Source: a virus. From it: DNA of 27,542 nucleotides. The position numbers were made by a program, and so were the translations under genes. The stretch lies in UHGV virus genome UHGV-0297460, one strand, 5' to 3'. Below, piece by piece: positions 4,273 through 22,548 of the stretch (position 1 is the stretch's first letter; each line of letters begins with the position of its first letter). Under the pieces are notes generated by a model, which made no database searches, was not told where the DNA came from, and worked only from the letters and a program-made list of their open reading frames with translations.

Positions 4273-4279
4273 ACCAAAA

Positions 4280-5533: not shown

Positions 5534-5551
5534 GCTTAATGCTCCGATAGG

Positions 5552-6445
5552 TTATTTTTTTGCCTTTTTAGCGGCGAAATACGGCGTCCAGTCACCAGTT
5601 TCCAGCGCCTTGGCTTTCAATTTGTCGAGGTTGTTGATTACTGCGCCGTTGCTCCCCTTAACCGTCGGGGTTGTGGCTGCCGTGGTTTTTGCTTTTGGCA
5701 TGATTCTGGCCTTCGATTCGATACGTTCCAGCAGACGACCAATTGCTACGGGGTTGGTAGCTTCTGCCAGTTGCTTGCGCAGTTCAGCGTTGCGACCAAG
5801 CGCCAGAACAACGATTTCCGGCTTCTCTGACTCAAACAGGATCGCGTTTTGTGTCTCGATGGGGATTTCCTCGAGTACGGCCTGCTCAGCTTCCTGATAG
5901 CCAGGAACTTTGAGAGCCTTAACACGTTGCTGATATTTGGATAATCGCTCTTGATAGGCAGCCTGAAGCTCCTGCTCCTTCTGCTTGCGAGCCATCTCCT
6001 GTTGCTGGTACTTGCCATTATCCTCTGCCCACTTAGCCATGCGTTGCTGGTAGATTTCTTCATCGAAACCGATGTCCTCATCATCCAGTTTTGGCATTCG
6101 CGGTGGTTGAGTGATTACCGGCTGCTGCTCGACGGGTTTCTGAGACTGACGCATCAGCTCTTTCAGCTCGCGGTCTTTCTCTTTAATCGTCTTGCGCAGG
6201 TGTTTTACCAGTCCATGCTCAGCGCCATCTTCGCTGGTTGGCGAATCCAGCTTTTCGTCACCAAAGTAGAATTCCTGTTCTGATTCGTCGTCATCAGTTT
6301 CAGTAGCCTCCTCTGCATCATTGCCTGAGGACTCACTGCCATCTTCTGTTTCGACTTTTTCAGCCAGTTCGACATCATCAGGAATCTGCTCTGACGCGTC
6401 GGTTTCGATTTCAACTTCTGGTGTGTTTTCTGCCATCTGGTCCAT
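5552..6445 (-). CDS. Scaffolding protein, P22 gp8-like
   Basis: 297 aa, highly acidic N-terminus, Gln/Glu/Lys-rich coiled-coil, basic C-terminal helix ...GDWTPYFAAKKAKK; between portal and coat. Confidence 0.85.
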   Translation of the reverse strand: MDQMAENTPEVEIETDASEQIPDDVELAEKVETEDGSESSGNDAEEATETDDDESEQEFYFGDEKLDSPTSEDGAEHGLVKHLRKTIKEKDRELKELMRQSQKPVEQQPVITQPPRMPKLDDEDIGFDEEIYQQRMAKWAEDNGKYQQQEMARKQKEQELQAAYQERLSKYQQRVKALKVPGYQEAEQAVLEEIPIETQNAILFESEKPEIVVLALGRNAELRKQLAEATNPVAIGRLLERIESKARIMPKAKTTAATTPTVKGSNGAVINNLDKLKAKALETGDWTPYFAAKKAKK

Positions 6446-6535
6446 TTGTTACCCCTGTTTACTCGATGTTCAGCCCATCGGAAGGCAATAGGGTGCCAGG
6501 CCTCATAAAGACAGCCATTGCACGTTATGGGTTAA

Positions 6536-8734
6536 TTACTGCTGTGGTTGTTGCTGAGTTGATTTTTGCAGGATGCTGCTGATGTCCATGCGCTGCGCAT
6601 GGCCCTGTGCCTGACTTTTCAGGACAAGCTCTGCATCAGCACGGGCATTGTCTCCTTGCTGTTGCTGGAACTGTCCGAGCAGTTTCAGAGCCTCGCGGAT
6701 ATCAGATTTCTGCTGGCTATCGGCAGATGCGAGGATTTTCACAACATTTGCCGCTGCAACCTGAGCATCAGTCTGTGCCTGGAATGCTTTAACCTGAATG
6801 GCTGCCTGCTCGTTCTGCGCTTTCTGCAATTCAGCCTGACCAGCAAGAAGCTGACCTTGCGCAGCAACCATAGCCGGATCTGGCTGACTGGCCTGTTGTT
6901 GTTTCGCCTGCTCAACCATCTGCTGTTCTTCTGGCGTTCTCGGCTTGATAACTCCAGACAGAAGCAACTGATTGCGGTTGTATTCTTTAAGGTCGTCCAT
7001 CCCTTCGCCGTCCATATTGTCGAGGATCATCGACGATACAAGGTCGTGTTTCGGCGTTCCGGGCGGGATAAGTGCCAGCATGGAAAGTAACGACTTAACC
7101 GTTGCGTCACGGCGAGTAGCGAACGACTGACCGACATCGACAGTCACTTCATAGTTACCCTGCGAAAGGTCGTTAAGCGCGATAACCTGCCCTGTCTGAC
7201 GGTCAACCACTTCACCAGTCATCAGCGCCACGTCATCGCTGCCGTCCTCATTAACGATACGCATCGGCGTATCGCTGCCATAGACTTCACGAGCCATAGA
7301 AAGCCACACAACGCCAGCGCGACGCATGGATTTAGCCATGTTGTCCATGTAGATATAGGACTGCGTATCCATCCGGTTAAAGATGCTATCAACGGTATCG
7401 GTAGCAACGTTGCTCGGCATGTTCTCAAGCTGCGACGCACCTGTAATTTGCTGAATAGCCGTTCCGGTGTACTGCAATAGCCCGGCAAGAGCTGGAGGCA
7501 TTTGTGTCGGAGGCGTATAACTGCTGACCTGAGCCTGCGCAGTAATATCTCCGTTTTTGTTTTTCAGACTGACCATCGGCAGGAACGCCGGGCGCTTTTT
7601 GTTGCGCTCCGCCCAATGAGTGGCGAGAGGACCAGGAATCATGTCAACATCAACTACAGGAATGCCATCACCGCCAGCCTGAGTAGCGTTATCTGCAATC
7701 ATGGAAACCATCAGGTTCTCAAGACGCTGTGCATCCATCGCTTTTGCTGCGTGGCCTTCGATTCGTTCCTGATTATCAACAAATGAGCGACGTCCATATA
7801 CCGGGATGAGAGGAATATGTTCGCCCGGAATACGCTTCGGTTCTTCCAGCCATTCAGCGCCAGACAGAAGGCCGCAATAAACGCGGCGTTTCTTCACCGT
7901 TCGCTCGCCAATCAGTTCGAATGCACCATCGGTCAGCTCGTCGACAATATCTTTGATTTGCTCTTCATCATAGATTGCCGTTTCTCCGCTAACAGGGTTG
8001 CGCCATGCCGTGAGCTTCACCTTCTCTATGCGAACTTCGTAGTAGCGCCCAACATAGATGGCATCTGGCGTTGACCAGTCATATTGAGTGCCAGTCTCAT
8101 CACGAGAAAGGCCTGCCGCGATGGAATCAGGGTATTCAGCCTCGAACGCTTTAGGCGTCATGGAGAACATTTCCATAGCCCACATAGCATCAGAACGGTC
8201 ATATTGCTTGCTGTCCTGATCGAAGAAGACGCATGTCGCTGGGTCGTAAACAGGAAGAAGGCTGATGCGTCGCTGCTCGTTACTTGGGTCCATTTCATCT
8301 TCGTAATCGGCACACATGCGGAAACAACCGAATCCGCCCGTTACAGCATCATCAAATGCGTTATCACACGCTTCGCCACCTGATGTTTCCTGATAGTCAG
8401 CGCGGAATTTGCCGTTCATCTTTTTGGCTAACGCTTCCGATGCCTTGTCATCCTTCGGCCTGAATTTAACGCTGATGCGATTCTGTCGATACTCGCCAAT
8501 GATGCGATCACATTCACGGGCAATCTTATTCAGTTCAAAGCGCGGGTAATGCTCAAACCTGCCTTCATCAAATGAGTAACCAGCGTTTGTGCTGCCTTCC
8601 CACTGTGCGCCGGATACCCGGACGAAACGTTGAGCCTCAATAATCTGCTCACGCATATCCTGCGTTGCTGACCAGGCATTATCAAAGTTGCACAGCACCT
8701 TGCGATGCCAGTCAGTCATCTTTTTTTCTGCCAT
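6536..8734 (-). CDS. Portal protein, P22 gp1-like
   Basis: 732 aa with Gln-rich C-terminal barrel region; directly downstream of large terminase. Confidence 0.9.
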   Translation of the reverse strand: MAEKKMTDWHRKVLCNFDNAWSATQDMREQIIEAQRFVRVSGAQWEGSTNAGYSFDEGRFEHYPRFELNKIARECDRIIGEYRQNRISVKFRPKDDKASEALAKKMNGKFRADYQETSGGEACDNAFDDAVTGGFGCFRMCADYEDEMDPSNEQRRISLLPVYDPATCVFFDQDSKQYDRSDAMWAMEMFSMTPKAFEAEYPDSIAAGLSRDETGTQYDWSTPDAIYVGRYYEVRIEKVKLTAWRNPVSGETAIYDEEQIKDIVDELTDGAFELIGERTVKKRRVYCGLLSGAEWLEEPKRIPGEHIPLIPVYGRRSFVDNQERIEGHAAKAMDAQRLENLMVSMIADNATQAGGDGIPVVDVDMIPGPLATHWAERNKKRPAFLPMVSLKNKNGDITAQAQVSSYTPPTQMPPALAGLLQYTGTAIQQITGASQLENMPSNVATDTVDSIFNRMDTQSYIYMDNMAKSMRRAGVVWLSMAREVYGSDTPMRIVNEDGSDDVALMTGEVVDRQTGQVIALNDLSQGNYEVTVDVGQSFATRRDATVKSLLSMLALIPPGTPKHDLVSSMILDNMDGEGMDDLKEYNRNQLLLSGVIKPRTPEEQQMVEQAKQQQASQPDPAMVAAQGQLLAGQAELQKAQNEQAAIQVKAFQAQTDAQVAAANVVKILASADSQQKSDIREALKLLGQFQQQQGDNARADAELVLKSQAQGHAQRMDISSILQKSTQQQPQQ

Positions 8735-8735
8735 A

Positions 8736-10151
8736 TCAACCTACACCACAAGGAATTGAGTAACTGGAATAGTCGGGTTGCGCAGCCGACTCCGGGCAAT
8801 GCATACACATCATCAGCGCATCAGCCAGGTTAGGAGATGGGATACCGAGCTTCTGCTTCATTTCGACCTTAGTCATAAGCTCCAGTTTCCCGTTATTATT
8901 GAATTTGCGCTGAATCTGCGTCAGTTCTGCAAACAGTTTCTCCAGCATCTTCTCGCCTATCGCTTCTTTGTCGAAGCTCAGCATGTCGTCGGGGTCTGCA
9001 TACTCACCGTGGACAACCGCCCGATATGTCAGATACAGCCTGTCAGCCAGCGCGTAATAGAATTGCGCTCGCTTATTGCGGAATACATCGCCAATAGTGC
9101 GAACGTTGTCACCCTGTACGACTTCATCAGCCCATGCTCCGGCCTGATACGGAGCATCTTCATCGAATGGCGATTCGCTGCCCTTGAACATCGTGGCGGT
9201 AATTTTCTTGCCGGAGAATGCTTCCGTTGTCTGTCTGCGTAGCCCTGCACCGACACCATCGCCATCCCACAGGTAATGGTCAGCGCCGTCTTCAATCGCC
9301 AGCGAAGTAGCCCAGTCAGCACCCTCGTTGATGTCCATCAGCAGACCTTCGGCAATGCGCTTAACTACCGAACCGTGACGCGATGCATAACCTTTAGCAT
9401 CTGGCCCTGTATCTGATGGGTCATGCGCAGAGACAACAGCGCCTTTCGCTTTCCATCCGAGTTTCTTGTGCGCATCGGTTGCGGCTTCAAGCCATTCACG
9501 TTTGATGATTGCCATATCACTTGCGCTTACTGGCTCACCAAGCCAGATGTGACGATACAGTGTCGGGTTTCTGCGTTTACACTCTTCCATCTCCAGACGG
9601 AGAACTTCAGGAAAGTGCGGGTTGTCGGTGTAGTTCACCGTCAGCAGACAAATATCATCGGGAGGGTTTACTACGAATCGCTGATAGGTATCGTCGAGGA
9701 TGTTTTTCGGGTTGAAGCTCACCCATATTTCGGAAAATGGCTTGCGGATGGTTGGTATCAGGATATCCCATGATTCCTTCGTTACCGCTTCCGCTTCCTC
9801 CACCCAGCAGATATCAATGCCTTCGAGCGATTTAATCTTCGTCGGGTTGTTTTTGATGCCGTAGAACATGAACTCAGCATTCGTCCCGAGATGACGAATC
9901 ATGGAACGCTGAATTTCAAACTCAGCCGTATACCCTTCACGCTCTATGGTGTCTTCAAGCAGCCGGATTACCGAATCGCTGATACTGTTTTGCAGTTCAC
10001 GAGCGCAGAGAATACGCACTGGCTGCCGACGCGCCGCTTCAACAAGCAGTCTCGCAATTGCCCATGATTTACCGCTACCTCGACCGCCTTTGGCGACTTT
10101 GTAGCGATGCGCCTCAATGAACGGTTCAAAGATAGGATTAATCGAGGTCAT
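8736..10151 (-). CDS. Terminase large subunit
   Basis: 471 aa; Walker A-like KVAKGGRGSGKSWAIA near N-terminus; overlaps small terminase stop. Confidence 0.9.
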   Translation of the reverse strand: MTSINPIFEPFIEAHRYKVAKGGRGSGKSWAIARLLVEAARRQPVRILCARELQNSISDSVIRLLEDTIEREGYTAEFEIQRSMIRHLGTNAEFMFYGIKNNPTKIKSLEGIDICWVEEAEAVTKESWDILIPTIRKPFSEIWVSFNPKNILDDTYQRFVVNPPDDICLLTVNYTDNPHFPEVLRLEMEECKRRNPTLYRHIWLGEPVSASDMAIIKREWLEAATDAHKKLGWKAKGAVVSAHDPSDTGPDAKGYASRHGSVVKRIAEGLLMDINEGADWATSLAIEDGADHYLWDGDGVGAGLRRQTTEAFSGKKITATMFKGSESPFDEDAPYQAGAWADEVVQGDNVRTIGDVFRNKRAQFYYALADRLYLTYRAVVHGEYADPDDMLSFDKEAIGEKMLEKLFAELTQIQRKFNNNGKLELMTKVEMKQKLGIPSPNLADALMMCMHCPESAAQPDYSSYSIPCGVG

Positions 10152-10588
10152 TTTCCGAATAGAGTACTCATCGGTGATGTTTCAATCTGGATTGCGCCGC
10201 CGTCTTTGCCTGTTAGCTCGTGATCAACCTTGTCGCGCCATTTATCCTTCTGTCGGTTCTTAAGCCAGAAGATGGCAGCTGTTGTATCAGGCGGGTAATA
10301 CTTCTCAAGAGGAGTTTCGACAATTCTGTTTTCAATAACACGAATATCGATGTCTGGAGCCACGAAGCCCATAGCGCGTTGATAAAGACGGTCACTAACT
10401 TCTGCATCAGCGACGGCCTTACCCTTTTTTATGGACTCCGAAAACTCAGGATAATCAAGCTTCCACTTGTTAATAGTTGACTCACTGACTTCGAAGAAAT
10501 CAGCAAGCTCTGCATCGGTGTAGCCCAGCAAGCACAGTTTGCGTGCCTGTTCGGCATACGCCTCTTGATACTTTGTTGGGCGCGCCAT
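10148..10588 (-). CDS. Terminase small subunit
   Basis: 146 aa, HTH-like N-terminus, C-terminus ...KDGGAIQIETSPMSTLFGK recalled from Sf6/P22-like small terminases. Confidence 0.8.
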   Translation of the reverse strand: MARPTKYQEAYAEQARKLCLLGYTDAELADFFEVSESTINKWKLDYPEFSESIKKGKAVADAEVSDRLYQRAMGFVAPDIDIRVIENRIVETPLEKYYPPDTTAAIFWLKNRQKDKWRDKVDHELTGKDGGAIQIETSPMSTLFGK

Positions 10589-10590
10589 GT

Positions 10591-10833
10591 TTATGCTCCG
10601 GTGGTGAACAGGTCTAACGCTTCCTTCGATTTACGCACCGCTTCGATAGTGCGGGTCGTGATATCTGAATTAGCGCCGCCTGACTGGAAGTGAATTTTGA
10701 ATAGCTCAAGCTTCAGTTCGTCAGTGCCAATGAACTGAAATGCTTCCTCTGCGGCTGCGTTCTGGTTCATGACCAGCTTGTAAATCTCTAACTGGAATTT
10801 CTGTTCTTCAGTCATGGGAATAATCTCTGCCAT
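10591..10833 (-). CDS. Hypothetical protein (80 aa) upstream of small terminase
   Basis: ORF separated by 2 nt from small terminase start; no family recognised. Confidence 0.5.
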   Translation of the reverse strand: MAEIIPMTEEQKFQLEIYKLVMNQNAAAEEAFQFIGTDELKLELFKIHFQSGGANSDITTRTIEAVRKSKEALDLFTTGA

Positions 10834-11060
10834 TGTTGGCTCCGTTTATCCGTTAAAAGGGATATCAGTTAAGTTATCCCGTGTAGGGTATAAGCCATTG
10901 TCGAGACCACTCATTGAATGGTCTCTGCAATAACCGATGTCTTTCCATCAGTCCGCCACCACAAAGAATCTTTTTTGCCATAAGGCAGGAGGTTCATCTT
11001 TCAGTGGCTGCCAGTGTTATTTCCCCACTTTCTGGCTTGGGTTGTTTCGCTGTACTGCCG

Positions 11061-11603
11061 TTAATTGGTGAGTCCGGGGATTACGGTTTGCCCGTGCTGT
11101 TCAAGGCGTTCAATTCTCGCCAGTAGCTGAGGCTTCTTAATTTTTCCCCAGCGATTAAGCAGGCGGCCTGACATGCTGGCAACATCCTTCTCTTTCATGT
11201 ACTCCAGCATTACGGCATTTCTCTCTTCTTCAAATTGACGATGACCAACCTGAAGCATGGCGTACATCCAGTTGAATGCGTTGATGTAAGCAATTTTGAT
11301 ACGCATTGCTTCTTTTTTGGTGTAGGACATAACCAAAAGCATCAACCCATCCTTGCGGAGACGGTAGAATTTTTGCGGCTTACCATTCTGTAACTCATTG
11401 TTTTTATAGCAAAGCTCAAAGTTGAGCTTTGTATCAAACTCAGGAGGGCAAGCTTCTATGGTTCGTTCAATGTCACGAACCACGTTCTTCGGCAGCTTTC
11501 CAAATGCTTTTGCCACCATAAAAGAATCTGTAACCGGATCGTTGTTTGCTACAAAAATTAGGTCTCTGAAATCTATATCGTTAACAACGGTTGGGTAGTT
11601 CAT
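11061..11603 (-). CDS. rha: Rha-family phage regulatory protein
   Basis: Internal start MNYPTVVNDIDF...; motif FYRLRKDGLMLLVMSYTKKEAMRIKIAYINAFNWM fits Rha family; location between lysis genes and terminase. Confidence 0.6.
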   Translation of the reverse strand: MNYPTVVNDIDFRDLIFVANNDPVTDSFMVAKAFGKLPKNVVRDIERTIEACPPEFDTKLNFELCYKNNELQNGKPQKFYRLRKDGLMLLVMSYTKKEAMRIKIAYINAFNWMYAMLQVGHRQFEEERNAVMLEYMKEKDVASMSGRLLNRWGKIKKPQLLARIERLEQHGQTVIPGLTN

Positions 11604-11748
11604 TGCGTCTTTACCTTTTAGAAAGATGAGCCTGTTCGCACAGAAAAGCCGCCCCGAGATGGTCGCCACCATATACGGCAGTTCTCAGGCTCAGCTTTCT
11701 GAAAGACTCGGGATTGTTACGCGCTGCGATGCGCGGTTTACTGCAGAT

Positions 11749-11774
11749 ATAAAAAAGCCCCGCGAATGCGAGGC
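11749..11774 (-). terminator. Rho-independent terminator downstream of Rz
   Basis: Minus-strand GCCUCGC-AUUC-GCGGGGC hairpin followed by UUUUUUAUAU. Confidence 0.55.
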
Positions 11775-11948
11775 TAAATCCTGGTATTTGTAATGACTGG
11801 CTCTTATCTCAACGCAGCCCCTTACCGCGCGCCAGATGCTCAATATCAAGCATCAGCAATGAGATGTTTAATCTGGATTCACTCCAGAAGTGATCACCAC
11901 CCTGTCTACAGAGCCAGATGTGAAGGATGATGAGTAAAATTATCGCTA

Positions 11949-12386
11949 TCATCGAAGGCATTGCGTCCTGATGTACTCCTGCAGGTAGTTAACCTGCGCG
12001 GTTATCCTGTCGATTCCACTTCGGAGACGGTAATAATTGAGTTCAGCATCTGCTGTAAGTCTTGGGTTTTCTCCATCGCCCATGCTGCTGGCTCCGGTCG
12101 TTGACTTTGCACAGGTGGCGGCGACTTGCAGGCGCTTACGCCCAGCAGAAACATCAGCACGGAGACTTTCGATAGTCGCGTTAGCATCAGCAAGCTCCTT
12201 TGTGTATCTTGCGTCGAGTTCTGCTACATCACGTTGACGCTTCCGCATATCAGCGATGATGGATGTGGCTTTATCGCGCTGCTCTTTGTAGGCGATTGCA
12301 TTATCACGGTAATGATTAACAGCCCATGACAGGCAGACGATGATGCAAATAATCAGAGCGGAGATAATCGCGGTGACTCTGCTCAT
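11949..12386 (-). CDS. Rz: Spanin inner-membrane subunit Rz (i-spanin)
   Basis: 145 aa; N-terminal TM segment, coiled-coil; start overlaps endolysin stop; lambda Rz-like. Confidence 0.85.
12002..12193 (-). CDS. Rz1: Spanin outer-membrane lipoprotein Rz1 (o-spanin), embedded in Rz in a different frame
   Basis: 63 aa ORF wholly inside Rz; signal peptide with lipobox ...LLGVSAC, proline-rich [13 protein letters not shown]. Confidence 0.75.
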
Positions 12387-12859
12387 ACCTCAATCTCTCT
12401 GACCGTTCCGCCAGCCTCTTTGAATTTTGCAATCAGGTTGTCAGCCTTATGCTCGAACTGACCATAACCAGCGCCCGGCAGTGAAGCCCAGATATTGCTG
12501 CAACGGTCGATTGCCTGACGAATATCACCGCGGTCAATCATCGGTAAAGCGCCACGCTCTTTAATCTGCTGCAATGCCACAGCGTCCTGACTTTTCGGAG
12601 AGAAGTCTTTCAGACCAAGCTGCTTACGGTAGGCATCCCACCAACGGGAAAGAAGCTGGTAGCGTCCGGCGGCTGTTGATTTGAGTTTTGGGTTTAGCGT
12701 GACAAGCTTGCGAGGGTGATCGGAGTAATCAGTAAATAGCTCTCCGCCTACAATGACGTCATAACCATGATTTCTGGTTTTCTGCCGTCCGTTATCAGTT
12801 CCCTCTGACCACGCCAGCATATCGAGGAACGCCTTACGTTGATTATTGATTTCCACCAT
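12383..12859 (-). CDS. R: Endolysin, lambda R-type lytic transglycosylase
   Basis: 158 aa, [51 protein letters not shown]... essentially lambda R as recalled. Confidence 0.95.
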
Positions 12860-13166
12860 CTTCTACTCCGGCTTTTTTAGCAGCGAAGCGTTTGATAAGC
12901 GAACCAATCGAGTCAGTACCGATGTAGCCGATGAACACGCTCGTTATATAAGCGAGATTGCTACTTAGTCCGGCGAAGTCGAGAAGGTCACGAATGAACC
13001 AGGCGATAATGGCGCACATCGTTGCGTCGATTACTGTTTTTGTAAACGCACCGCCATTATATCTGCCGCGAAGGTACGCCATTGCAAACGCAAGGATTGC
13101 CCCGATGCCTTGTTCCTTTGCCGCGAGAATGGCGGCTAACAGGTCATGTTTTTCTGGCATCTTCAT
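12843..13166 (-). CDS. S: Holin/antiholin, lambda S-type (S107/S105 dual start)
   Basis: 107 aa, [36 protein letters not shown]... essentially lambda S; Met1-Lys2-Met3 dual-start motif present. Confidence 0.95.
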
Positions 13167-13762
13167 GTCTTACCCCCAATAAGGGGATTTGCTCTATTTA
13201 ATTAGGAATAAGGTCGATTACTGATAGAACAAATCCAGGCTACTGTGTTTAGTAATCAGATTTGTTCGTGACCGATATGCACGGGCAAAACGGCATGAGG
13301 TTGTTAGCGCAACCTCATGCCACCCGCTTTCACGAAGGTCATGTGTAGAAGGCCGCAGCATAACTATCACTGATGAATTCAGGATAGCCAGTGGCTACGG
13401 CTCAGGTTGGGTTGTGGCGGTCGGTGCTGAACTCCGACTTAATGACGATAGGCGTGTACCGACGCCTCGTTTTACTTCCTCCGCTTTCACGGCTTCACCC
13501 TAGACCAGCTTTACGAAATCCTCGTAAACCTAACCGCGGCAGATATGACCGGCACGGTGTGCCATATCACGGACCGGCGGGTGTCTCGTTCACCTGATTA
13601 ACGCATCAGCCTGCGTATTCACCACAACGATAAGAGTACTGCGCGGCACCTTTCACCAATTCCGCGAGGTCTGCGGGTTCAATGCTCTTACCTGTTGTGC
13701 AAACAAAAAAGCCACCGTTGCAACTTAAGAGTCACTAACGGCAGCTTACCTTCTAATTATGG

Positions 13763-14281
13763 CTAAATGGATAATTGCATGTCAAGGTTTTTAACAGCAA
13801 CATGCTTAACTTTCTCAACACGTTTACGCATTTTGAAAGCATTTTGCATTGGCTGGTATAAAACAAATAATGACGCTTTCAGGATGTCGTCAATTTCGTT
13901 TCTACAGGTTGCCAGTGAAGGTTTTCTCCATCCCTCGCCACCACGTCCACACATCTTGCGTGGCTTTGCAGTCGCGTGATAGTAGGATGCAATTGCTCGC
14001 TTAGATGAACCATGAGCGTAGTAGCTGAGGAGGATGCCAAAGGCTTTCTTGTCAATGTACATGACGGAATCAACGACCTGAGAAATCAACATTCCATCAT
14101 CATCATTACACATTGGCCTTGTCATAATTCTTCCCGGCTCTACGCTCTCCATGAACTTCGCTATTACGCTGCTCATGCGCTTTTCCAGACGACCTGAATA
14201 AACCCATGCGCCCCACAGTTCAAGCCAGCCATTCAGCCACTCGTGCTGCTCTTTGGTGAGGTTTAGTTCTCTTATGCTCAT
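13763..14281 (-). CDS. Putative late-gene antiterminator (Q-like), non-lambda allele
   Basis: 172 aa ORF immediately downstream of ninH and about 600 bp upstream of S, the canonical Q position; sequence is not lambda Q; family not confirmed. Confidence 0.55.
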   Translation of the reverse strand: MSIRELNLTKEQHEWLNGWLELWGAWVYSGRLEKRMSSVIAKFMESVEPGRIMTRPMCNDDDGMLISQVVDSVMYIDKKAFGILLSYYAHGSSKRAIASYYHATAKPRKMCGRGGEGWRKPSLATCRNEIDDILKASLFVLYQPMQNAFKMRKRVEKVKHVAVKNLDMQLSI

Positions 14282-14466
14282 CGTCTTCCCCTCTTGCCTT
14301 GTTTGACCATCAGGACGCCGTTAACTATTACGTGACGCTCGCCTTTGCTGTCTCGGTTGTACTTGAGCACTGTTCCTCTTGCGCAGGAAAGCATCCTCGC
14401 CACTTCGGTCTGATTGCCTCGTGTCTGGATAAGAAGCTCTGGTATCGTTTGAATTGTGGCGTTCAT
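14278..14466 (-). CDS. ninH: NinH-like protein
   Basis: 62 aa, ...GNQTEVARMLSCARGTVLKYNRDSKGERHVIVNGVLMV... closely resembles lambda NinH. Confidence 0.8.
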   Translation of the reverse strand: MNATIQTIPELLIQTRGNQTEVARMLSCARGTVLKYNRDSKGERHVIVNGVLMVKQGKRGRR

Positions 14467-14825
14467 GCGTTCTCCAGTTCGGTGATTTTTATTCCAAGCC
14501 GTCCGCCTGGTACTTTCACACCACGAATTACGCGAATGTCATCGAATTGCTCGTCGTCTTCCGCAAATCCGGCGTGGATAAGGGAGTCGAGTAAACCTTT
14601 CAGGATGTTGTCGAGGTCGCGGCGGCGGGAGTCTGGAACGTCTGCGATGACTTTGATACGGAGTCGTGATTTGGTGAAAATGTCTAACTTGAGTTGGCGG
14701 ATGATTTGCTGAACGTCTTTTCGGTATTTCTGGCCTTTATCGCTTATGTAATATTGGCTTCCCCGTCTTCGCCAGTAGGTATTCACCGACGGCGGGTATG
14801 GAAGCACAAACTGATATTCGTTCAT
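14463..14825 (-). CDS. rusA: RusA-family Holliday junction resolvase
   Basis: 120 aa, ...VLPYPPSVNTYWRRRG...DVPDSRRRDLDNILKGLLDSL...GGRLGIKITE matches RusA motifs (RRDLDN, catalytic Asp residues). Confidence 0.85.
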   Translation of the reverse strand: MNEYQFVLPYPPSVNTYWRRRGSQYYISDKGQKYRKDVQQIIRQLKLDIFTKSRLRIKVIADVPDSRRRDLDNILKGLLDSLIHAGFAEDDEQFDDIRVIRGVKVPGGRLGIKITELENA

Positions 14826-15112
14826 GACTTAATCTTCCCCTCCCTCAGCAGTATCGCCTGCGTTCTGATCACGCCTTCGAGGTGGTAAAGTCTGGCGTCT
14901 TTGTTGTCGAGATTATGGGTGCGTCGGTCGATTTCATCGTGACACGCACTACAAGCCCATGCACCGATCAGGTCGTCAGGCTTCATTCCCGTTCCGCAAA
15001 TTCCAGCCATCCGGTAATGTGCCAGAACTGTAGTTTCAGGGTTGCCATTGCATACGCCGTAAATACGTACCTGACATTCTCTTCCGCGCGCTTCTTTGCG
15101 TAGGTTAGCCAT
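14822..15112 (-). CDS. DUF1364-family protein (DLP12 YbcO-like, putative nuclease)
   Basis: 96 aa, MANLRKEARGRECQVRIYGVCNGNPETTVLAH...ACSACHDEIDRR resembles E. coli YbcO; adjacent to rusA as in DLP12. Confidence 0.7.
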   Translation of the reverse strand: MANLRKEARGRECQVRIYGVCNGNPETTVLAHYRMAGICGTGMKPDDLIGAWACSACHDEIDRRTHNLDNKDARLYHLEGVIRTQAILLREGKIKS

Positions 15113-15834
15113 TAAGCAGCCTCCCCTGTTACTTTCAGCATTCCGTTATCGAGCAGCTTTCTGGTCAGCCACTGTTGACCACGCCCGGTGATTTTTGTGG
15201 TGAACGATATCTGTATTCCGTGATTTGTGTTGACCGCTGTTTCTTTCACTGTGAAATAGCCGCGATCCATATATTCCTGCATTGGCACATTGCGCCGGGA
15301 ACCTGAAGCAATAAGGATTTTGTGATCACGCATCCACGCAAACAGTTTGTTTTGACCAATACCAACAACCTTTGCAAAGTTTCCAATCAAAATTCCGCTG
15401 GCCTCGCCAACGCGATCGGCAAACTCAACTTTAGGTGCGACAATTGCGAGCTGGTTTTCCAGTTGCATTTTCTGCTCAGCAAGATCGGCAGCAAGGCGCA
15501 ACGCTTCCGGTAGCGTTTTGGGGATATTAACCGCAGCTTCTTCAAGCTCTCGCCAGCGGTCAACAAGGCGAGCGGTGAACTCTGGCGACAACTGGGCAAC
15601 AACGACAATACTGTCTCGCTTACCTTGTTCGCCCTCGAAGACGTAATGCTCGTACTGAACATTGAACCCTAAGTTATTGATTCTTTCGGAAACCTCAATT
15701 TGAGGAAGCCGGATAACACCATTTTTAGCCAGCGTTTCGATGGTACGTTTCACATTGTCATGACGCTTACCAACCAACTCAGCAATTTCAATGCTTGTCA
15801 TTTTGATGGCATTGCCATTCATTAACTCATTCAT
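15112..15834 (-). CDS. Antirepressor-like protein (Rha-like N-terminal region, KilA-C/ANT-type C-terminal domain)
   Basis: 240 aa; N-terminal IEIAELVGKRHDNVKRTIETL motif; C-terminal ...NKLFAWMRDHKILIASGSRRNVPMQEYMDRGYF typical of ANT/KilAC; domain call by memory only. Confidence 0.55.
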   Translation of the reverse strand: MNELMNGNAIKMTSIEIAELVGKRHDNVKRTIETLAKNGVIRLPQIEVSERINNLGFNVQYEHYVFEGEQGKRDSIVVVAQLSPEFTARLVDRWRELEEAAVNIPKTLPEALRLAADLAEQKMQLENQLAIVAPKVEFADRVGEASGILIGNFAKVVGIGQNKLFAWMRDHKILIASGSRRNVPMQEYMDRGYFTVKETAVNTNHGIQISFTTKITGRGQQWLTRKLLDNGMLKVTGEAA

Positions 15835-16003
15835 CGTCTTCTTCCTCGTACATTGAGCTATTCGGATCGCTCATCAGTTCTGCGCAGCAATCGGAGCACA
15901 CGTGAACTTCAAGCACATGCAGCTTCTGACCGCAGTTAGCGCACGTTAATGCCCGCTCGACGCTTTCTTTCTGGTATTGAAGGGATTGGGATGGGCTAAG
16001 CAT
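15827..16003 (-). CDS. Small Cys-rich (zinc-ribbon-like) nin-region protein, 58 aa, NinF-like position
   Basis: Own translation MLSPSQSLQYQKESVERALTCANCGQKLHVLEVHVCSDCCAELMSDPNSSMYEEEDDE; below the 60 aa track cutoff; stop overlaps next start (ATGAATGA). Confidence 0.5.
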   Translation of the reverse strand: MLSPSQSLQYQKESVERALTCANCGQKLHVLEVHVCSDCCAELMSDPNSSMYEEEDDE

Positions 16004-16169
16004 TATTGGCGTCCTGCATCATGAGAAATACAATCATGGCGGCGCGGAGTGGAGATTCACCGCAGAAGTAGTAGCCAGGAATATTTTCCCATTCCCAACA
16101 ACCTTCCTCTAAATCACCTCCTGACCATGCGCACCATTCTTTTTCCGCTGTCATCCACATAGTGCTGAT

Positions 16170-16283
16170 TTTGCTTTCAGTGATAATTGGCCACGCGTAT
16201 TCAGGATTATTGCAAGGATTGAAGCAATTTCCGTTTGAAGAACGGAAGCCATTAATATCCCTTTTTTGCGTCTGCCAAATAGG
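16170..16283. repeat. 114 bp inverted-repeat arm X (perfect reverse complement of 16581-16694)
   Basis: Base-by-base comparison of reverse complement; identity stops at both flanks. Confidence 0.9.
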
Positions 16284-16350
16284 ACGAAGTATCACCGACA
16301 TCATCTGCGAAAACTGCAAATACCTTCCAACGAAACGCACCAGAAATAAA
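16284..16350. repeat. 67 bp inverted-repeat arm Y (perfect reverse complement of 16695-16761)
   Basis: Base-by-base comparison; abuts arm X but in the order X-Y at both loci, not the Y-X expected of a simple inverted duplication. Confidence 0.9.
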
Positions 16351-16580
16351 CGCAAGCCAATCCCAAAAGAATCTGACGTAAAAACCTTCAACTACACGGC
16401 TCACCTGTGGGATATCCGGTTGCTAAGACATCGTGCGAGGAAATGACAATGGATTATTCACAGTTAAGTGATTTTGAAATTAACAGACGAGTATGTGAGG
16501 CTTTAGATATGGAGGAGCATTTCTTCATACCTGATGACGAAGCAGACTTCGATTCTGAGATCCCCACTGACGAAAGAGGT

Positions 16581-16694
16581 CCTATTTGGCAGACGCAAAA
16601 AAGGGATATTAATGGCTTCCGTTCTTCAAACGGAAATTGCTTCAATCCTTGCAATAATCCTGAATACGCGTGGCCAATTATCACTGAAAGCAAA
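16581..16694. repeat. 114 bp inverted-repeat arm X' (partner of 16170-16283)
   Basis: Perfect reverse-complement identity. Confidence 0.9.
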
Positions 16695-16761
16695 TTTATT
16701 TCTGGTGCGTTTCGTTGGAAGGTATTTGCAGTTTTCGCAGATGATGTCGGTGATACTTCGT
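16695..16761. repeat. 67 bp inverted-repeat arm Y' (partner of 16284-16350)
   Basis: Perfect reverse-complement identity. Confidence 0.9.
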
Positions 16762-16771
16762 CGCTGTCGCC

Positions 16772-17182
16772 TCATTCGTACCTCCTGTCGGTAAATCTGA
16801 CACCCTGACCAATAGCCCATGCTGTTGTGTACTCGATCAGACTTGCCATACGCTTCACACTCATCTGCGCGCTGCTTTCGCGAATGTTGACGTATTCGCC
16901 TTCAAGCCCGGGCAAAACATCAGCTTCCTGTTTTGTTGCCACTGCATGACCGCTGATCAACAAAACCTTCCATTGTTCTGGTTTTAACCATTTATCGCGC
17001 CACTGAACTTGCCTAGCGATATCTGCGACCATCGCGTGAAATTTTGCGTTCTGGTCAAGGTTGCGCTTGTAGTCAGTAATGCGGATGGTGACTGGCTTGT
17101 CTTTATCGAGTGGTGTTGCGAGGATGGCATTTATTGCAGCTTGCTGTTGTTGCTTAGTTCGGAGGAATATTGTTTGCTTCAC
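16772..17182 (-). CDS. ninB: NinB (Orf-family recombination mediator)
   Basis: 136 aa with GTG start and AAGGAG SD; ...[32 protein letters not shown]... parallels lambda NinB ...RNRSLDQNRKLWACLGDVSRQVEWHGRWL. Confidence 0.8.
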
Positions 17183-17193
17183 TGAATACTCCT

Positions 17194-17385
17194 TTATTTT
17201 TTATGCCTGTAACCCCATTCTTCCAGCAACCTTGCGGCGTACCACCCAAGAAACAAAGGAAAGAACATTACAATGAGATATTTCCCGCCACGGTCAATGT
17301 TCGAAATTGACCAGATTACGATGTAACCAGTGCAGGACAGGAATATTACAAACCCCAAAAAGCTACTTCGTCGACTCATGCTCAC
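17194..17385 (-). CDS. Small hydrophobic protein (63 aa), predicted membrane
   Basis: Two hydrophobic stretches; start overlaps upstream stop (ATGA). Confidence 0.45.
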   Translation of the reverse strand: MSMSRRSSFLGFVIFLSCTGYIVIWSISNIDRGGKYLIVMFFPLFLGWYAARLLEEWGYRHKK

Positions 17386-17696
17386 TCCTTCACTTTGATT
17401 CCAGCGGCGCGGATAGCCTCTACATCGCTTTCGTATTGCGATTCTGCACCTGAGTCATAGCCAATGTGATAATCACCGGGAAGTGGGCCTTTCTTTGGCT
17501 TTTGCAGCTCAATTTCAATAGCTGCTCTCGATGCCTGCCACGTTTGCCAGTGGCCTTGAACATCGTCCATCACGTATTGACCACCAATATCACCACTGCC
17601 AATTTCATGGTGATTTTCAGGGTAACGGATAAGGTCTGAAGATTCGCCCCCCACGTCGTAACCAACTCTCTTCAAACTGGCATCTGCTTTCGTCAT
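17382..17696 (-). CDS. Hypothetical protein (104 aa; start uncertain, may begin at internal Met near 17570)
   Basis: ORF coupled to downstream gene; 5' 80 nt overlap the upstream Cys-rich ORF in another frame. Confidence 0.4.
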   Translation of the reverse strand: MTKADASLKRVGYDVGGESSDLIRYPENHHEIGSGDIGGQYVMDDVQGHWQTWQASRAAIEIELQKPKKGPLPGDYHIGYDSGAESQYESDVEAIRAAGIKVKE

Positions 17697-17799
17697 CTTT
17701 CATAAGGCAGTCACATTCAATAAAAATCGGCTCTCCCCAAGGAGTAGAACCTCCGCTATCACACATTCCTGTGTTATTGCACTTTTGGCACTTGCTCAC
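17617..17799 (-). CDS. Small Cys-rich protein (60 aa, GTG start)
   Basis: GGAGG SD 5 nt upstream of GTG; CxxC...C...C.C pattern (MSKCQKCNNTGMCDSGG...IECDC). Confidence 0.4.
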   Translation of the reverse strand: MSKCQKCNNTGMCDSGGSTPWGEPIFIECDCLMKDDESRCQFEESWLRRGGRIFRPYPLP

Positions 17800-17811
17800 A
17801 TTAACCTCCGA

Positions 17812-18018
17812 TTAACTCACAAAACGCCACGCCACTTTTGCTACGACAACAGGCATAACACCGATAATCACCCACAGAAAAATGCTACCGAAAAGCACAC
17901 CAACCAGGTCTTTACCTTCGCCTACCAACCGGACAAAACTGCTGGCAACCACAATGAACGTCGCCACCATCCACATAGCACCGAGAATCCTCAATGCAGA
18001 AAAAATCAACTCAACCAC
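17812..18018 (-). CDS. Small membrane protein (68 aa)
   Basis: Two predicted TM helices; first ORF downstream of the tR2-like terminator. Confidence 0.45.
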   Translation of the reverse strand: MVELIFSALRILGAMWMVATFIVVASSFVRLVGEGKDLVGVLFGSIFLWVIIGVMPVVVAKVAWRFVS

Positions 18019-18033
18019 GATTTACCCTCCCCC

Positions 18034-18065
18034 AAATAAAAAGGCCTGCGATTACCAGCAGGCCT
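18034..18065 (-). terminator. Rho-independent terminator between helicase gene and nin region (lambda tR2 position)
   Basis: Minus-strand AGGCCTGC-tggtaatc-GCAGGCCT hairpin followed by TTTTTATTT. Confidence 0.7.
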
Positions 18066-18090
18066 GTTACAAGCTCAGTGATGTAGATGG

Positions 18091-19467
18091 TCATACGTCA
18101 GCCCCTTGTGCATATCGTCTGCCACGCGCAGCAGGTGCATTTGATGCTGTGCAAATCTGTCTGGCTTCATCCTGGTCACATGCAACAAAGTGTCCGTTGC
18201 AGAACCGCTGGTAAACCGTACCAAGTGAGCCAAAACGGTTTTTCGTCACGATGATTTCAGCAAATGGCGCGGCGCTACTGTTCTCGTCATATACCGCTTC
18301 CCGATAGAGCATGATGATTGAGTCTGCGTCCTGTTCAATGCTTCCTGAATCACGCAAATCTGCGTTTGTCGGGCGTTTGTTTGGTCGCTTCTCAACATCG
18401 CGTGAAAGCTGACTCAGGGAAATAACCGGTGTTTTCAGGTCTTTCGCCATCGCCTTCAGGCTTCCGGAGATGTGAGCAATTGCGAGGTCGTTGCGGTCTG
18501 CTTTCGGCTTCTCAATCAGGCCAAGATAATCCGCCATGATGAGTGAGAGGTTTGGATTTTCCTGTTTGTGCCGTTCTGCGATTGAGCGTATTTCTTCGAC
18601 CGATAATCGCGAGGCATCGACTACCCATACATCCAAATCTGCAAGCTGACTCATGCCGTTAGCAACACGTGCCCAGCCCTCGTCATCCATCGATGCAGGA
18701 TTTCGCAGTACGCTAACCGACATCCTCCCGGCGTTGGCAATGCTTCGCTCTGCAATCTGCAATGCGCTCATTTCCATTGAGAAAATCAATACCCCGCGCC
18801 GGACGTCAGAACCAGGAATAACGCGGCTTGCAACGCCTTCGGCAATCTTCAGCGCCAGTTCGGTTTTCCCCATACCAGGACGAGCAGCGATTATCACCAG
18901 GTCTTCCGCGTTCATCCCTCCGGTGATGGCATCAAGTTCTTCGATTCCGGTCTTCAGGGTATCGGACTCTTCTCCGTTCCTCAGACGCCTGTCAAGCGTG
19001 TCAGTGTAGTCGGTGATGATTTCCCCTAACCGTACAGGTTTAACCTCGTCACGGGGCTTTCTGATGGCTGAGAGACGTTTTACAAGTTCATCCATCGCCT
19101 GACTCAATGCGTCGATGGTTCCGCTTTGGATTGGTTCACGCATTTCATCCATGATTTCCAGCACCAGACGGCGGTGATAGTTATCCGCGACCATTCCGGC
19201 ATATCCCTTCAGGTTTGCGGCGCTCGGGCAGTTTTTGCTGGTCATCAGGATTGACGTGAAATGCTCCTCTCCGCACGCCTCGGCAACCATCAGCGCGTCG
19301 ATTAGGTTTCTGTTTCTCGCCTGCTTCCGGATAACCTCGAAGGCTTTCCGGTAGAGCGGAATTGAAAACGCTTCCGGCTCCAGCGTTGCAAGAACGTCAC
19401 TGGCGGTTGGAGTTAATCCACCAATCAGCAGGCCACCGATAACGCTCGCTTCGATATCCTGTCTCAT
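18091..19467 (-). CDS. Replicative DNA helicase, DnaB family (P22 gene 12 position)
   Basis: 458 aa; Walker [16 protein letters not shown], Walker B/H4 motifs ...[10 protein letters not shown]..., DnaB-like N-terminal domain. Confidence 0.9.
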
Positions 19468-20411
19468 GCAATCCCCCTGTCTGCAAACTTCCCTTCCCGA
19501 ACTCCCGTTAACGAGTCTTCTCTCAGCAGGTAATCAAAATCAGCCGTCCAGCCCGTGTCGTTGTCTCCGAAGTAAAACGGCTTGGCCTGATGCACAAACG
19601 CCCTGACATACGCTCTGAAACCGTCCACGTTTGGCGTTTTCAGTTGCGGGATGATTTTCTTCAGGCGGCGTTTTCGTTTCTCGTTGACCGCAACAGCGTG
19701 TGGCAGTCTGTCACCGACTTCGGTGTTGTAGGCGTTCAGGAAGGATTCGTAGTCGATTCGTTCTGCCTTGCGACGTTCAGGTTTAACCTGCCCATCGCCT
19801 CCCCCATTGGGGGGTAGGGGGGTATTATTTATATTCTTGTTAATACCTTCTTGTTCATGATGTGCGGTTGTTTGTGCGGCTTCATGTGCGCTTTCATGTG
19901 CGGCATGTACGCTGAAAGCCGCGCTATTGCTGGCTTCATCATGTGCGGCATCATGTGCGGTTGTTTGTGCGGCTTCATGTGCGGGTAAATTGTCCATTTT
20001 TTGAGCATATTCATGGTAATTTGTGATGGTTATCACACGGCCTTTTTGCTTCTCTCCATCAATGGAGATCATCCCCTCTTTCACAAAAACCTGAAGCATC
20101 CGCTCAACCTGATCACGGCTTGCTGGCTTGCCATGTCTGTCGCATAACTGAAGACCTAAATCAGCTGCTGTCACAACCAGTTGACCGGGTTGCAGATGCC
20201 ATTCATGACCTTTGAAATTCGCTTTGTATGGCTTTCTGGCGGCATTCAGGAGAAGGTTTTCCCACAGGGTGCGAAGATAAACATCTTTCGCCCATGACTG
20301 TTTCAGAATGCTCCGGTACAACGGAATGTAACCAGTTTTCTGGTTCTCCATCCTGTTGCTCCTGCGCTCGTGTGCGGCGCTGAAATCGTAGATTTTTGCT
20401 GTATTGCTCAT
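19464..20411 (-). CDS. Replication initiator / replisome organizer (lambda O-like), with iteron-encoded His/Ala-rich linker
   Basis: 315 aa; N-terminal replisome-organizer-like domain; internal repeats encode [14 protein letters not shown]...; immediately upstream of helicase. Confidence 0.8.
19857..19990. repeat. Putative replication origin iterons inside the O-like gene (two clusters of four 12 bp-spaced TGTGCGG repeats; 31 bp direct repeat at 19860-19890 and 19953-19983)
   Basis: TGTGCGG at 19861, 19873, 19885 (variant), 19897 and 19942, 19954, 19966, 19978; AT-rich tracts flank at 19820-19850 and 19985-20040. Confidence 0.65.
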
Positions 20412-20413
20412 AA

Positions 20414-20686
20414 CTACCTGCCTTGACGAAAGACCTTAAGAACATCGTTAAACTGACTTACGGATATGTCTTCTTTGAGAAGCTTTTCCAGAAATGCGTT
20501 TGGAATGAACGTATATCCCTCCTCTTTTGGTAGAGACGGGAGCAACGCCCTCGCCTCAGCCTTCAGAAGCTCAGTTCTGGCAACTTTCACAAAAGAGATT
20601 TGAGTTCTTTCATCAATGGAACGAAGGAAGCGCAAACGCTTAGCTTCTTTGTGTGTATCAGGTGGATTAAAGCCTTTGTTTCGCAT
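20414..20686 (-). CDS. Hypothetical protein (90 aa) between cII and replication initiator
   Basis: Internal ATG of the 181 aa track ORF (MRNKGFNPPDTHKEAKRLRF...) preceded by GAGG; the 5' portion of the long ORF overlaps cII and is taken as spurious. Confidence 0.5.
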   Translation of the reverse strand: MRNKGFNPPDTHKEAKRLRFLRSIDERTQISFVKVARTELLKAEARALLPSLPKEEGYTFIPNAFLEKLLKEDISVSQFNDVLKVFRQGR

Positions 20687-20708
20687 ATAATTACCTCGTT
20701 GGATGTTG

Positions 20709-21002
20709 TTAAAATTCCATTTGTATTTGATCAGAACGCTCGGTTGCCGCCGGGCGTTTTTTATTGGTGAGAATCGAAGCAACTTGTCGTGCCAATCGAG
20801 CCATGTCGTCGTCGACAACACCCCATTCAAGAACAGCAAGCAGCATTGAGAACTTTGGAATCCAGTCCCTCTTCCACCTGCTGATCTGCGACTTATCAAC
20901 GCCCACAGCTTCCGCTGTCTTCTCAGTTCCAAGCATTGCGATTTTGTTAAGCAACGCACTCTCGATTCTTAGAGCCTCGTTGCGTTTGTTTGCACGAACC
21001 AT
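20709..21002 (-). CDS. cII: Transcriptional activator CII (lambda cII-type)
   Basis: 97 aa from internal Met: MVRANKRNEALRIESALLNKIAMLGTEKTAEAVGVDKSQISRWKRDWIPKFSMLLAVLEWGVVDDDMARLARQVA... matches lambda CII as recalled. Confidence 0.92.
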   Translation of the reverse strand: MVRANKRNEALRIESALLNKIAMLGTEKTAEAVGVDKSQISRWKRDWIPKFSMLLAVLEWGVVDDDMARLARQVASILTNKKRPAATERSDQIQMEF

Positions 21003-21058
21003 ATGTAAGTATTTCCTTAACAAATAAGAAGTTATGCGCATCAACTTATGCGCGTTGT

Positions 21059-21104
21059 ATTCCCGCATTTCGGCGGGAATGAGGACCATGACTGTTAAAG
21101 AGCA
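21059..21104 (-). promoter_or_regulatory. nutR-like element: boxA-like TGCTCTTTAA followed by hairpin ATTCCCGC-cgaaat-GCGGGAAT; second hairpin plus U-rich run just downstream (tR1 candidate)
   Basis: Read on minus strand between cro stop and cII start. Confidence 0.45.
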
Positions 21105-21110
21105 ATTTGC

Positions 21111-21296
21111 TTATGCCGCTTTGCGGTAAGCGCTTTCTTGATACTTCAGGGCGCCAGCTGTAACGACTTCCAGTCGATAGGCGTCTTTCTCTGGGATGAC
21201 TTCCTTCCACTGAGAGACTGCTGCGTCGCTAATGCCTAACGCTTTAGCTACAGCACGCTGGGTTCCGAAGTGGTCGATAACATCTTTCTTGTACAT
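21111..21296 (-). CDS. cro: Cro repressor (P22 Cro-type)
   Basis: 61 aa, MYKKDVIDHFGTQRAVAKALGISDAAVSQWKEVIPEKDAYRLEVVTAGALKYQESAYRKAA matches P22 Cro as recalled. Confidence 0.92.
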   Translation of the reverse strand: MYKKDVIDHFGTQRAVAKALGISDAAVSQWKEVIPEKDAYRLEVVTAGALKYQESAYRKAA

Positions 21297-21310
21297 AGAC
21301 TCGCTCCGAA

Positions 21311-21376
21311 ATTAAAGAACACTTAAATTATCCACTAAAGGAATCTTAAGTCAAGTTTATTTAAGATGTCTTAACT
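21311..21376. promoter_or_regulatory. OR region: three 18 bp operators (21311-21328, 21334-21351, 21359-21376) with divergent PR/PRM
   Basis: Palindromic half-sites ATTAAAG/CTTAAAT, ACTAAAG/CTTAAGT, ATTTAAG/CTTAACT with 4 bp centres; PR -35 TTGACT and -10 GATAAT on minus strand. Confidence 0.75.
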
Positions 21377-22027: not shown

Positions 22028-22052
22028 GGGGGCATTCGCCCCTTTTTTTTTA
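22028..22052 (+). terminator. Rho-independent terminator after repressor gene
   Basis: GGGGGC-attc-GCCCC hairpin followed by T9. Confidence 0.7.
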
Positions 22053-22093
22053 TTTCCTTTAAAAATCAAAGCCAAACTTAAGTTACGAAAGAA

Positions 22094-22148
22094 AATTTAA
22101 GTTTTCTTCAAAAATGCTCTTGACCATTAATTAAAGAGATCTTAAATT
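22094..22148 (+). promoter_or_regulatory. OL/PL region: operators (perfect palindrome ATTAAAGagatCTTAAAT at 22130-22147; weaker site 22094-22111) overlapping PL (-35 TTGACC 22120-22125, -10 TAAATT 22143-22148)
   Basis: Same half-site family as OR; promoter hexamers with 17 bp spacing. Confidence 0.65.
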
Positions 22149-22464: not shown

Positions 22465-22493
22465 TGCTCTTTCTGCCCCTCAGTTCGAGGGGC
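22465..22493 (+). promoter_or_regulatory. nutL-like site: boxA-like TGCTCTTTC plus boxB-like hairpin GCCCCTC-agttc-GAGGGGC
   Basis: Located about 60 nt upstream of the N-like gene start. Confidence 0.5.
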
Positions 22494-22548
22494 CAGAAAC
22501 CACTTTGCAATCACTATCAATTCCAAAGTTGTTTCATCGGAGGTCAAC

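Follow-up and report, generated by a model that had tools for sequence, protein, structure and literature searches.

Rha-domain genes roi and rha of a CUS-3-type prophage and the intragenic palindromes that may be their own operators

Introduction

The viral genome stretch UHGV-0297460 (27,542 nt, analyzed at its full length and hereafter the window) carries two genes of the Rha family: roi, in the nin region, and rha, between the lysis genes and terminase. This raises the question of what two such proteins do in one phage, and in particular whether Roi, which joins a Rha-type N-terminal domain to an ANT/KilAC domain at the C-terminus, acts as an antirepressor, as an original prediction made from the letters of the sequence had proposed. 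The antirepressor label on this very large family derives from homology alone, and the sequence evidence for the Rha-domain members points instead to self-binding DNA regulators. Our analysis suggests that Roi and Rha probably bind palindromes lying within their own genes, assisted by integration host factor (IHF).

As first posed, the presence of two Rha-domain genes is an ordinary finding that matters little: both genes are already known and catalogued, being annotated in phage CUS-3 and in the E. coli S88 prophage, and their relatives were studied in the 1980s–1990s. The palindromes, together with their one-to-one link to residues of the recognition helix, offer a directly testable model, which covers the control of Roi and Rha and the reason why they are harmful to the phage without IHF, and which predicts specificity swaps.

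Two Rha-Domain Genes in a CUS-3-Type Prophage

Sequence comparison identifies the window as an E. coli prophage of the P22-like CUS-3/S88 type. Its DNA is 99.3–99.8% identical to that of Enterobacteria phage CUS-3, a P22-like Lederbergvirus whose source is E. coli K1 strain RS218, and 99.96–99.99% identical to the CUS-3-type prophage of E. coli S88. Positions 1–16285 differ from the S88 prophage by 2 mismatches and positions 16695–27542 by 3 mismatches and one gap, so that the total difference amounts to 5 single-nucleotide polymorphisms, 1 indel and one rearrangement, the last (16170–16762) being the sole large one. The genes surrounding roi and rha all lie on the minus strand. The two genes and their coding parts are as follows (HTH, helix-turn-helix):

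15112..15834, minus strand: roi, 240 aa, with an N-terminal Rha-type winged HTH, a long linker helix and, at the C-terminus, an ANT/KilAC domain
15538..15801, minus strand: Phage_pRha-coding part of roi (aa 12–99)
15724..15768, minus strand: roi codons 23–37, the turn and predicted recognition helix (from the AlphaFold2 helix 25–37 and the covariation tables), with K23, N27 and R30, the residues that co-vary with the palindrome
15625..15774, minus strand: mosaic, allele-variable patch of roi (nt 61–210), from the DNA identity of six alleles
15151..15459, minus strand: ANT/KilAC-coding part of roi (aa 126–228), 98–100% conserved among E. coli alleles
11061..11603, minus strand: rha, 180 aa, with a Rha winged HTH and an ORF11CD3 domain; an alternative start at 11672 gives 203 aa
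11076–11231, minus strand: ORF11CD3 module of rha (ERNAVMLEYMKEKDVASMSGRLLNRWGKIKKPQLLARIERLEQHGQTVIPGLTN)

Domain searches with hidden Markov models placed both the Rha and the ANT assignments above the curated cut-offs, as had been predicted from the bare sequence. Roi matches the Pfam model Phage_pRha (PF09669) over aa 12–99 with 36.7 bits against a cut-off of 29.9, and ANT/KilAC (PF03374) over aa 126–228 with 113.5 bits against a cut-off of 25.3; it has no match to the TIGR02681 model. It also matches PHROG 63, 'anti-repressor Ant', with an E-value of 1.6e-99, and is 100% identical to the CUS-3 product annotated 'roi: DNA-binding protein', while the NCBI annotation pipeline (PGAP) names it 'phage antirepressor KilAC domain-containing protein'. 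One search recovered more than 7,000 relatives with E ≤ 1e-5; the ANT domain is present in all of the 120 best-scoring matches listed, most of which also contain Phage_pRha, and in a profile search both domains occur in all 120 matches listed.

The second gene was found where predicted and with the predicted Rha domain, though it codes for 180 aa rather than 181. Rha scores 77.1 bits with Phage_pRha (cut-off 29.9) and 84.8 bits with TIGR02681 (cut-off 45.95), and its aa 125–176 match ORF11CD3 (PF10549) with 91.2 bits (cut-off 25); Pfam detects no ANT/KilAC domain in it. PGAP calls it a 'Rha family transcriptional regulator'. Its start codon is ambiguous between 11603 and 11672, because the CUS-3 record uses the long form (ATG 11672, 203 aa), as does the P22-type record of phage As3 (201 aa), whereas PGAP and a Shiga toxin (Stx) phage record choose the ATG at 11603, a codon that three alleles conserve. 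The protein shares about 53% identity (54% in another alignment) with the Rha (ORF201 homologue) of the P22-type Salmonella phages As3 and HT105/1, and occupies the same slot as rha in P22-type and Stx phages and in phi80. Across the P22-type and Stx phages its C-terminal 56 aa are almost invariant and the N-terminal domain is divergent.

BLASTP finds no similarity between Roi and Rha, but a profile-profile comparison (hhalign) aligns Roi 1–84 with Rha 20–119 at 88% probability and an E-value of 3e-6. Thus, together with the Pfam matches, the claim of two Rha-domain genes in one genome holds.

An AlphaFold2 model of Roi built from 81 diverse homologues reached a predicted local distance difference test score (pLDDT) of 72.6; an earlier run, whose alignment was shallow and comprised 18 close homologues, reached a pLDDT of 36 and was discarded. 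In the model, the N-terminal domain is predicted to comprise a strand, an HTH formed by helices 14–21 and 25–37, a β-hairpin at 45–67 (the wing) and two further helices. A long helix (108–142) forms the linker, and the C-terminal domain again combines an HTH (150–157 and 161–170) with a hairpin (194–215), so that both domains share a strand-HTH-hairpin architecture. Sequence searches of Roi and Rha against PDB chains returned nothing useful, and the PADLOC defense-system models had no match for either protein.

Intragenic Palindromes Beside IHF Cores

Each of the two genes contains a perfect palindrome about 20 codons downstream of the recognition-helix codons, followed 7–10 nt further on by an IHF-type core:

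15693..15705, no strand assigned: perfect 13-bp palindrome CCTCAA-A-TTGAGG in roi (nt 130–142), proposed Roi operator
15670..15682, minus strand: IHF core consensus AATCAATAACTTA in roi (nt 153–165), 10 nt downstream of the palindrome
11410..11431, no strand assigned: perfect 22-bp (10+2+10) palindrome CAAAGCTCAA-CT-TTGAGCTTTG in rha, proposed Rha operator
11391..11403, minus strand: IHF-like core AAACAATGAGTTA (1 mismatch) in rha, 7 nt downstream of the palindrome

The exact IHF core WATCAANNNNTTR has a single match in the 27.5-kb window, namely the one in roi; the palindrome cores of roi (CTCAANTTGAG) and rha (CTCAANNTTGAG) likewise occur once each in the window, within their own genes. The roi palindrome and IHF core both fall inside the mosaic patch, where the mean pairwise DNA identity of six roi alleles is 54–70% (nt 61–210), compared with 76–100% in the remaining gene. 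At the same spot, other E. coli alleles have different palindromes (CCTGCATTGCAGC, CCTGCATTGCAGG, CCCCCAATGGTGG and CCGCCAATGGCTG), and five of the six alleles keep the IHF core.

The closest studied counterpart is the roi gene of phage HK022. HK022 Roi reportedly binds a site in its own gene beside an IHF site; IHF is said to stabilize this binding, and Roi reportedly blocks lytic growth in IHF mutants. The two proteins are 87% identical over their full length of 240 aa, and the two phages share the gene order ninF-roi-ybcO-rusA. HK022 roi has an exact IHF core at nt 153–165, the only one in the 10.7 kb of HK022 examined and at the homologous position, as well as a palindrome at nt 130–142, 10 nt upstream of that core. 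However, the window allele differs at aa 22–63, the recognition region, and the palindromes differ too, being CCTCAAATTGAGG in the window and CCTGCATTGCAGC in HK022.

In the hhalign alignment of the two families, the position of the rha palindrome corresponds to that of roi. Among 62 unique rha gene sequences, its core is conserved in all 23 distinct N-terminal variants listed. Stx-phage rha has the palindrome AGCGCAA-TT-TTGCGCT and another allele has ACGCAA-TT-TTGCGT, while in P22-type rha the near-palindrome AGCGCAT-TT-TTGCGTT precedes an exact IHF core at the corresponding position. The spacers upstream and downstream of rha contain no IHF core. P22 ORF201 and phi80 Rha also resemble the window protein in their slot between Rz and DUF2560/orf80, their Rha plus ORF11CD3 architecture, their nearly identical C-terminal 56 aa and their intragenic palindrome with an IHF-type core; in contrast, the N-terminal domains are only about 40–50% identical, and the half-site is CTCAA in the window rha and CGCA(A) in the P22/Stx types, a difference that agrees with N versus D at the recognition helix. 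Both phi80 Rha and the product of P22 orf201 are described, in the summary given in PMC4936722 of work by Henthorn & Friedman 1995 and Mozola & Friedman 1985, as late-operon products that block lytic growth without IHF, and the same summary has rha regulated by IHF.

Separately, a second perfect palindrome, ATGGCA-A-TGCCAT, lies at window positions 15807–15819 (roi nt 16–28), within the 5′ end that the E. coli alleles conserve, and 8 Roi-family members show a minor cluster of perfect palindromes near nt 570–585.

Family-Wide Palindromes and Residue-to-Base Covariation

We then examined 86 Roi-family genes, comprising 80 species-level homologues (39–87% identical, from many Proteobacteria) and the six E. 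coli alleles. Perfect 6+1+6 palindromes number 72 in this set, where chance alone would give 14.3. A perfect palindrome falls at nt 120–150 in 47 of the 86 genes, compared to 0–8 genes for control windows of equal size. There are 14 distinct palindrome sequences, and the peptides that they encode differ (PQIE, PPMG, PPLV, PAMQ and others); the constraint therefore acts on the DNA.

The identity of the half-site follows the residues of the predicted recognition helix and the preceding turn (residues numbered as in the window Roi):

Residue 27 N: base 3 is T (28/28)
Residue 27 K: base 3 is C (11/11)
Residue 27 S: base 3 is A (13/13)
Residue 27 D: base 3 is G (5/5)
Residue 30 R or Q: base 4 is C (46/46)
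Residue 30 V or I: base 4 is G (11/11)
Residue 23 K: base 5 is A (11/11)
Residue 23 S or A: base 5 is C (44/44)

The mutual information between residues and bases was higher than in any of 10,000 shuffles. Zero conditional entropy for a base is confined to residues 23, 27, 30 and 34, and is not seen for the far more variable residues 15, 37, 42 and 43. Residues 27, 30 and 34 share one face of the predicted helix 25–37. The same rule fits four rha alleles, with K36-N40-R43 going with CTCAA and K-D-R with CGCAA. We lean slightly towards the generalization that Rha-domain phage regulators, which are labeled 'antirepressor' by databases in thousands of genomes, as a rule carry their own operator within the coding sequence, with residues 23/27/30 setting the half-site. 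If true, the codons that set specificity would move with their target site as a single small mosaic cassette. In this phage, Roi (early) and Rha (late) have the half-site CTCAA in common, with different spacing, and the two proteins might therefore cross-talk. A literature word search found no description of a family-wide self-operator or a residue-to-base rule, the HK022 footprint paper being excluded from this statement; we accordingly present both as leads and claim no discovery.

Proposed Mechanism

In the mechanism that we propose, the products of roi, a gene of the early-right nin operon, and of rha, which belongs to the late operon and lies between lysis genes and terminase, would both act as sequence-specific DNA-binding regulators in which a Rha-type winged HTH is combined with a different C-terminal module, KilAC in one and ORF11CD3 in the other. 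Each protein would bind its own palindrome as a dimer with the help of IHF, and the resulting intragenic complex would limit expression of the gene that contains it. It might also limit read-through into what lies downstream, i.e., Q in the case of roi and the packaging and head genes in that of rha. In the absence of IHF, this control would be lost and surplus protein would block lytic growth, and the proposal would thereby explain the phenotypes published for HK022 Roi and for the phi80 and P22 Rha proteins. The analysis itself shows which genes these are, their domains and synteny, and the palindromes with their family-wide conservation and their covariation with residues of the helix. Binding, the part played by IHF, the way in which regulation is directed and what the KilAC and ORF11CD3 modules do are what we infer.

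Several observations weigh against this proposal. Binding by Roi and Rha is a prediction from sequence, and the HK022 palindrome is presumed to be the published Roi-binding site. A good palindrome and an IHF core are both lacking in the 933W-type roi allele, and about ten other Roi homologues likewise have no good palindrome. The recognition-helix codons lie only about 50 nt from the palindrome, and the association could therefore be partly due to linkage. Against simple linkage, each specificity class includes 3–12 different wing types, and its members diverge in the codons that separate the helix from the palindrome. Finally, in palindromes with five of six pairs matched, 15 of the 29 mismatched pairs are G:T, and an RNA hairpin is therefore still conceivable.

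The frequency of G:T mismatches in the imperfect copies is one reason to ask whether the palindromes are RNA hairpins, or signals for recombination or mosaic joints, with the helix association arising from linkage. The palindrome indeed sits in the middle of the mosaic patch, and that of rha could form an RNA stem of 9–10 bp. However, pairing of the central A-n-T in the roi-type palindrome would leave a loop of a single base, which is impossible in RNA. Moreover, the bases are set only by residues 23, 27, 30 and 34 (of which 27, 30 and 34 are helically spaced) and not by their more variable neighbors, and both half-sites change together, the 14 distinct palindromes all being perfect. We accordingly give this explanation little weight. 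The lambda O, P22 gp18 and L gp18 initiators provide a precedent for a target that lies in the protein's own gene and varies by allele; unlike the single palindrome beside an IHF site seen here, those targets are multiple direct repeats that form the replication origin (PMC8022706).

Alternative Roles for Roi

The proposal that Roi inactivates CI/C2-type repressors, its own or those of co-resident prophages, draws on the name of its C-terminal domain and on the company it keeps. The Pfam family is named after P1 Ant and KilA, the ANT/KilAC name coming from the C-terminal half of P1 Ant; PHROGs and NCBI carry the family label 'anti-repressor', which P22 Ant (immI) and P1 Ant1/2 share, and in Stx phages an annotated antirepressor adjoins roi in the nin region. 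Set against this, such labels rest on homology only, and the studied Roi homologue, that of HK022, is a DNA-binding protein affecting lytic growth according to papers citing Clerget & Boccard 1996 (J Bacteriol 178:4077). CUS-3 further has a separate P22-type ant gene, located with mnt genes in an immI-like region outside the window. Its product matches both P22_AR_N and P22_AR_C, the two domains of P22-type Ant, whereas Pfam finds neither in Roi or Rha. P22 ant is under mnt, arc and sar; CUS-3 has mnt genes and apparently no arc. The prophage repressor is a LexA-family (S24) protein; repressors of this family are inactivated by RecA-stimulated self-cleavage, and therefore no antirepressor is needed for induction. 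Roi homologues of 30–33% identity with the pRha plus KilAC architecture are encoded by Jerseyvirus (Salmonella phage S120) and ICP1 genomes, which we take to be virulent phages without a repressor of their own, and this argues for a role beyond lysogeny control. The Roi N-terminal domain, moreover, clearly tracks a DNA site. The identity of roi, the separate ant and the palindromes thus lend no support to the antirepressor role, either on C2-type repressors or on co-resident prophages, and we regard it as unlikely.

A different possibility places the main effect in the KilAC domain, which would dampen the host SOS response, probably via RecA, leaving the Rha domain for self-control only. The precedent is the Listeria protein AriS, whose ANT/KilAC domain alone suppresses SOS, and whose authors count pRha plus KilAC among the natural architectures of AriS-like proteins (PMC9043618). 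The 98–100% conservation of the Roi KilAC domain across alleles of differing N-terminal specificity also suggests a constant partner. On the other hand, the AriS data come from proteins of Firmicutes, a different host phylum, and these are only distantly related to Roi; the SOS activity of the domain is known from Listeria only, and at native AriS levels SOS is unchanged there (PMC9043618). With regard to the antirepressor role, the same paper counts against it, since it calls the exact function of the domain unclear, and what it describes is an inhibition of SOS and of induction, which is not antirepression. The predicted HTH-plus-hairpin shape of KilAC would fit DNA binding equally well. As the main function of Roi, SOS dampening is thus doubtful, although as an added function it is possible and compatible with self-binding regulation. 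Literature word searches on Roi, Rha and KilAC function returned annotation-level mentions and the AriS paper only.

The 933W-type roi allele (L089:3001–3723, from the Stx2a phage phiXuzhou21, and L091) has a decayed palindrome, CCTTCAATGCAAA, in which 3 of 6 pairs are matched; it is resembled by a homologue from Phlomobacter that shares its 'VENKQ' wing type. These alleles may have lost the proposed self-control. Insertions of IS629 in roi are known from Stx2a prophages.

Gene Neighborhoods of roi and rha

As had been described from the sequence, roi lies in the nin region beside the YbcO-like gene and a small gene, here identified as ninF; its wider neighbors are RusA, NinH and Q. The rha gene likewise lies between the lysis genes and terminase, with Rz on one side and DUF2560 and the small terminase on the other:

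15827..16003, minus strand: ninF, with an 8-nt overlap with the start of roi
14822..15112, minus strand: ybcO/hkbD, whose start overlaps the roi stop (TAATG)
11756..11775, minus strand: strong terminator-like hairpin between Rz (after a 50-aa open reading frame, ORF) and rha, from a consensus scan only

Among 80 viral contigs with this roi allele, the order NinF-Roi-YbcO-RusA-NinH is kept in 72. The predicted translational coupling on both sides is real insofar as start and stop codons overlap (ATGAATGA at ninF/roi and TAATG at roi/ybcO), and these overlaps recur in 73–75 of the 80 related contigs. Such overlaps are, however, generic to lambdoid nin regions (PMC8022706), and we rejected the coupling as a special feature of roi. 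We likewise rejected a linkage of roi and rha as a pair: a rha homologue is present in only 16 of the 60 contigs that have enough downstream DNA. In this region, the counts of promoter-like and terminator-like sites did not exceed those in shuffled sequences.

The slot between Rz and DUF2560 (window positions 10834–11948) is a cargo hotspot in the contigs that share this roi allele. Its length ranges from 450 to 2966 nt, and it holds other Rha alleles, KilA-N-like ORFs (recognized by eye), ORF families of 159 aa and 126 aa, or little at all. The ORF11CD3 module is near-identical in CUS-3-type, P22-type and Stx phages despite the divergence of the N-terminal domain, and the KilA-N-like ORFs of this slot end in a C-terminal tail related to it. 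The constancy of the module, together with these related tails, suggests a conserved partner. The 50-aa hydrophobic ORF (11809–11961, minus strand) overlaps the end of Rz and is annotated as a hypothetical protein in S88.

A Rearrangement Upstream of ninF

Just upstream of ninF, the nin region (16170–16762) is rearranged with respect to the S88 and CUS-3 prophages. Positions 16283–16694 are the reverse complement of the native S88 sequence, and the inverted segment is flanked by perfect inverted duplications, one of 116 nt (16170–16285/16579–16694) and the other of 68 nt (16283–16350/16695–16762), with a 3-nt microhomology at one junction. The inversion disrupts ninX and ninE. Neither the 5,426 complete E. 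coli genomes searched nor the 80 related viral contigs contain this arrangement, and a search for the inversion junctions in IMG/VR and the GTDB species genomes found none. Either a genuine template switch or an artefact of assembly could explain it. Pairing of the 116-nt arms in the pR transcript could give a long double-stranded RNA upstream of ninF-roi-Q.

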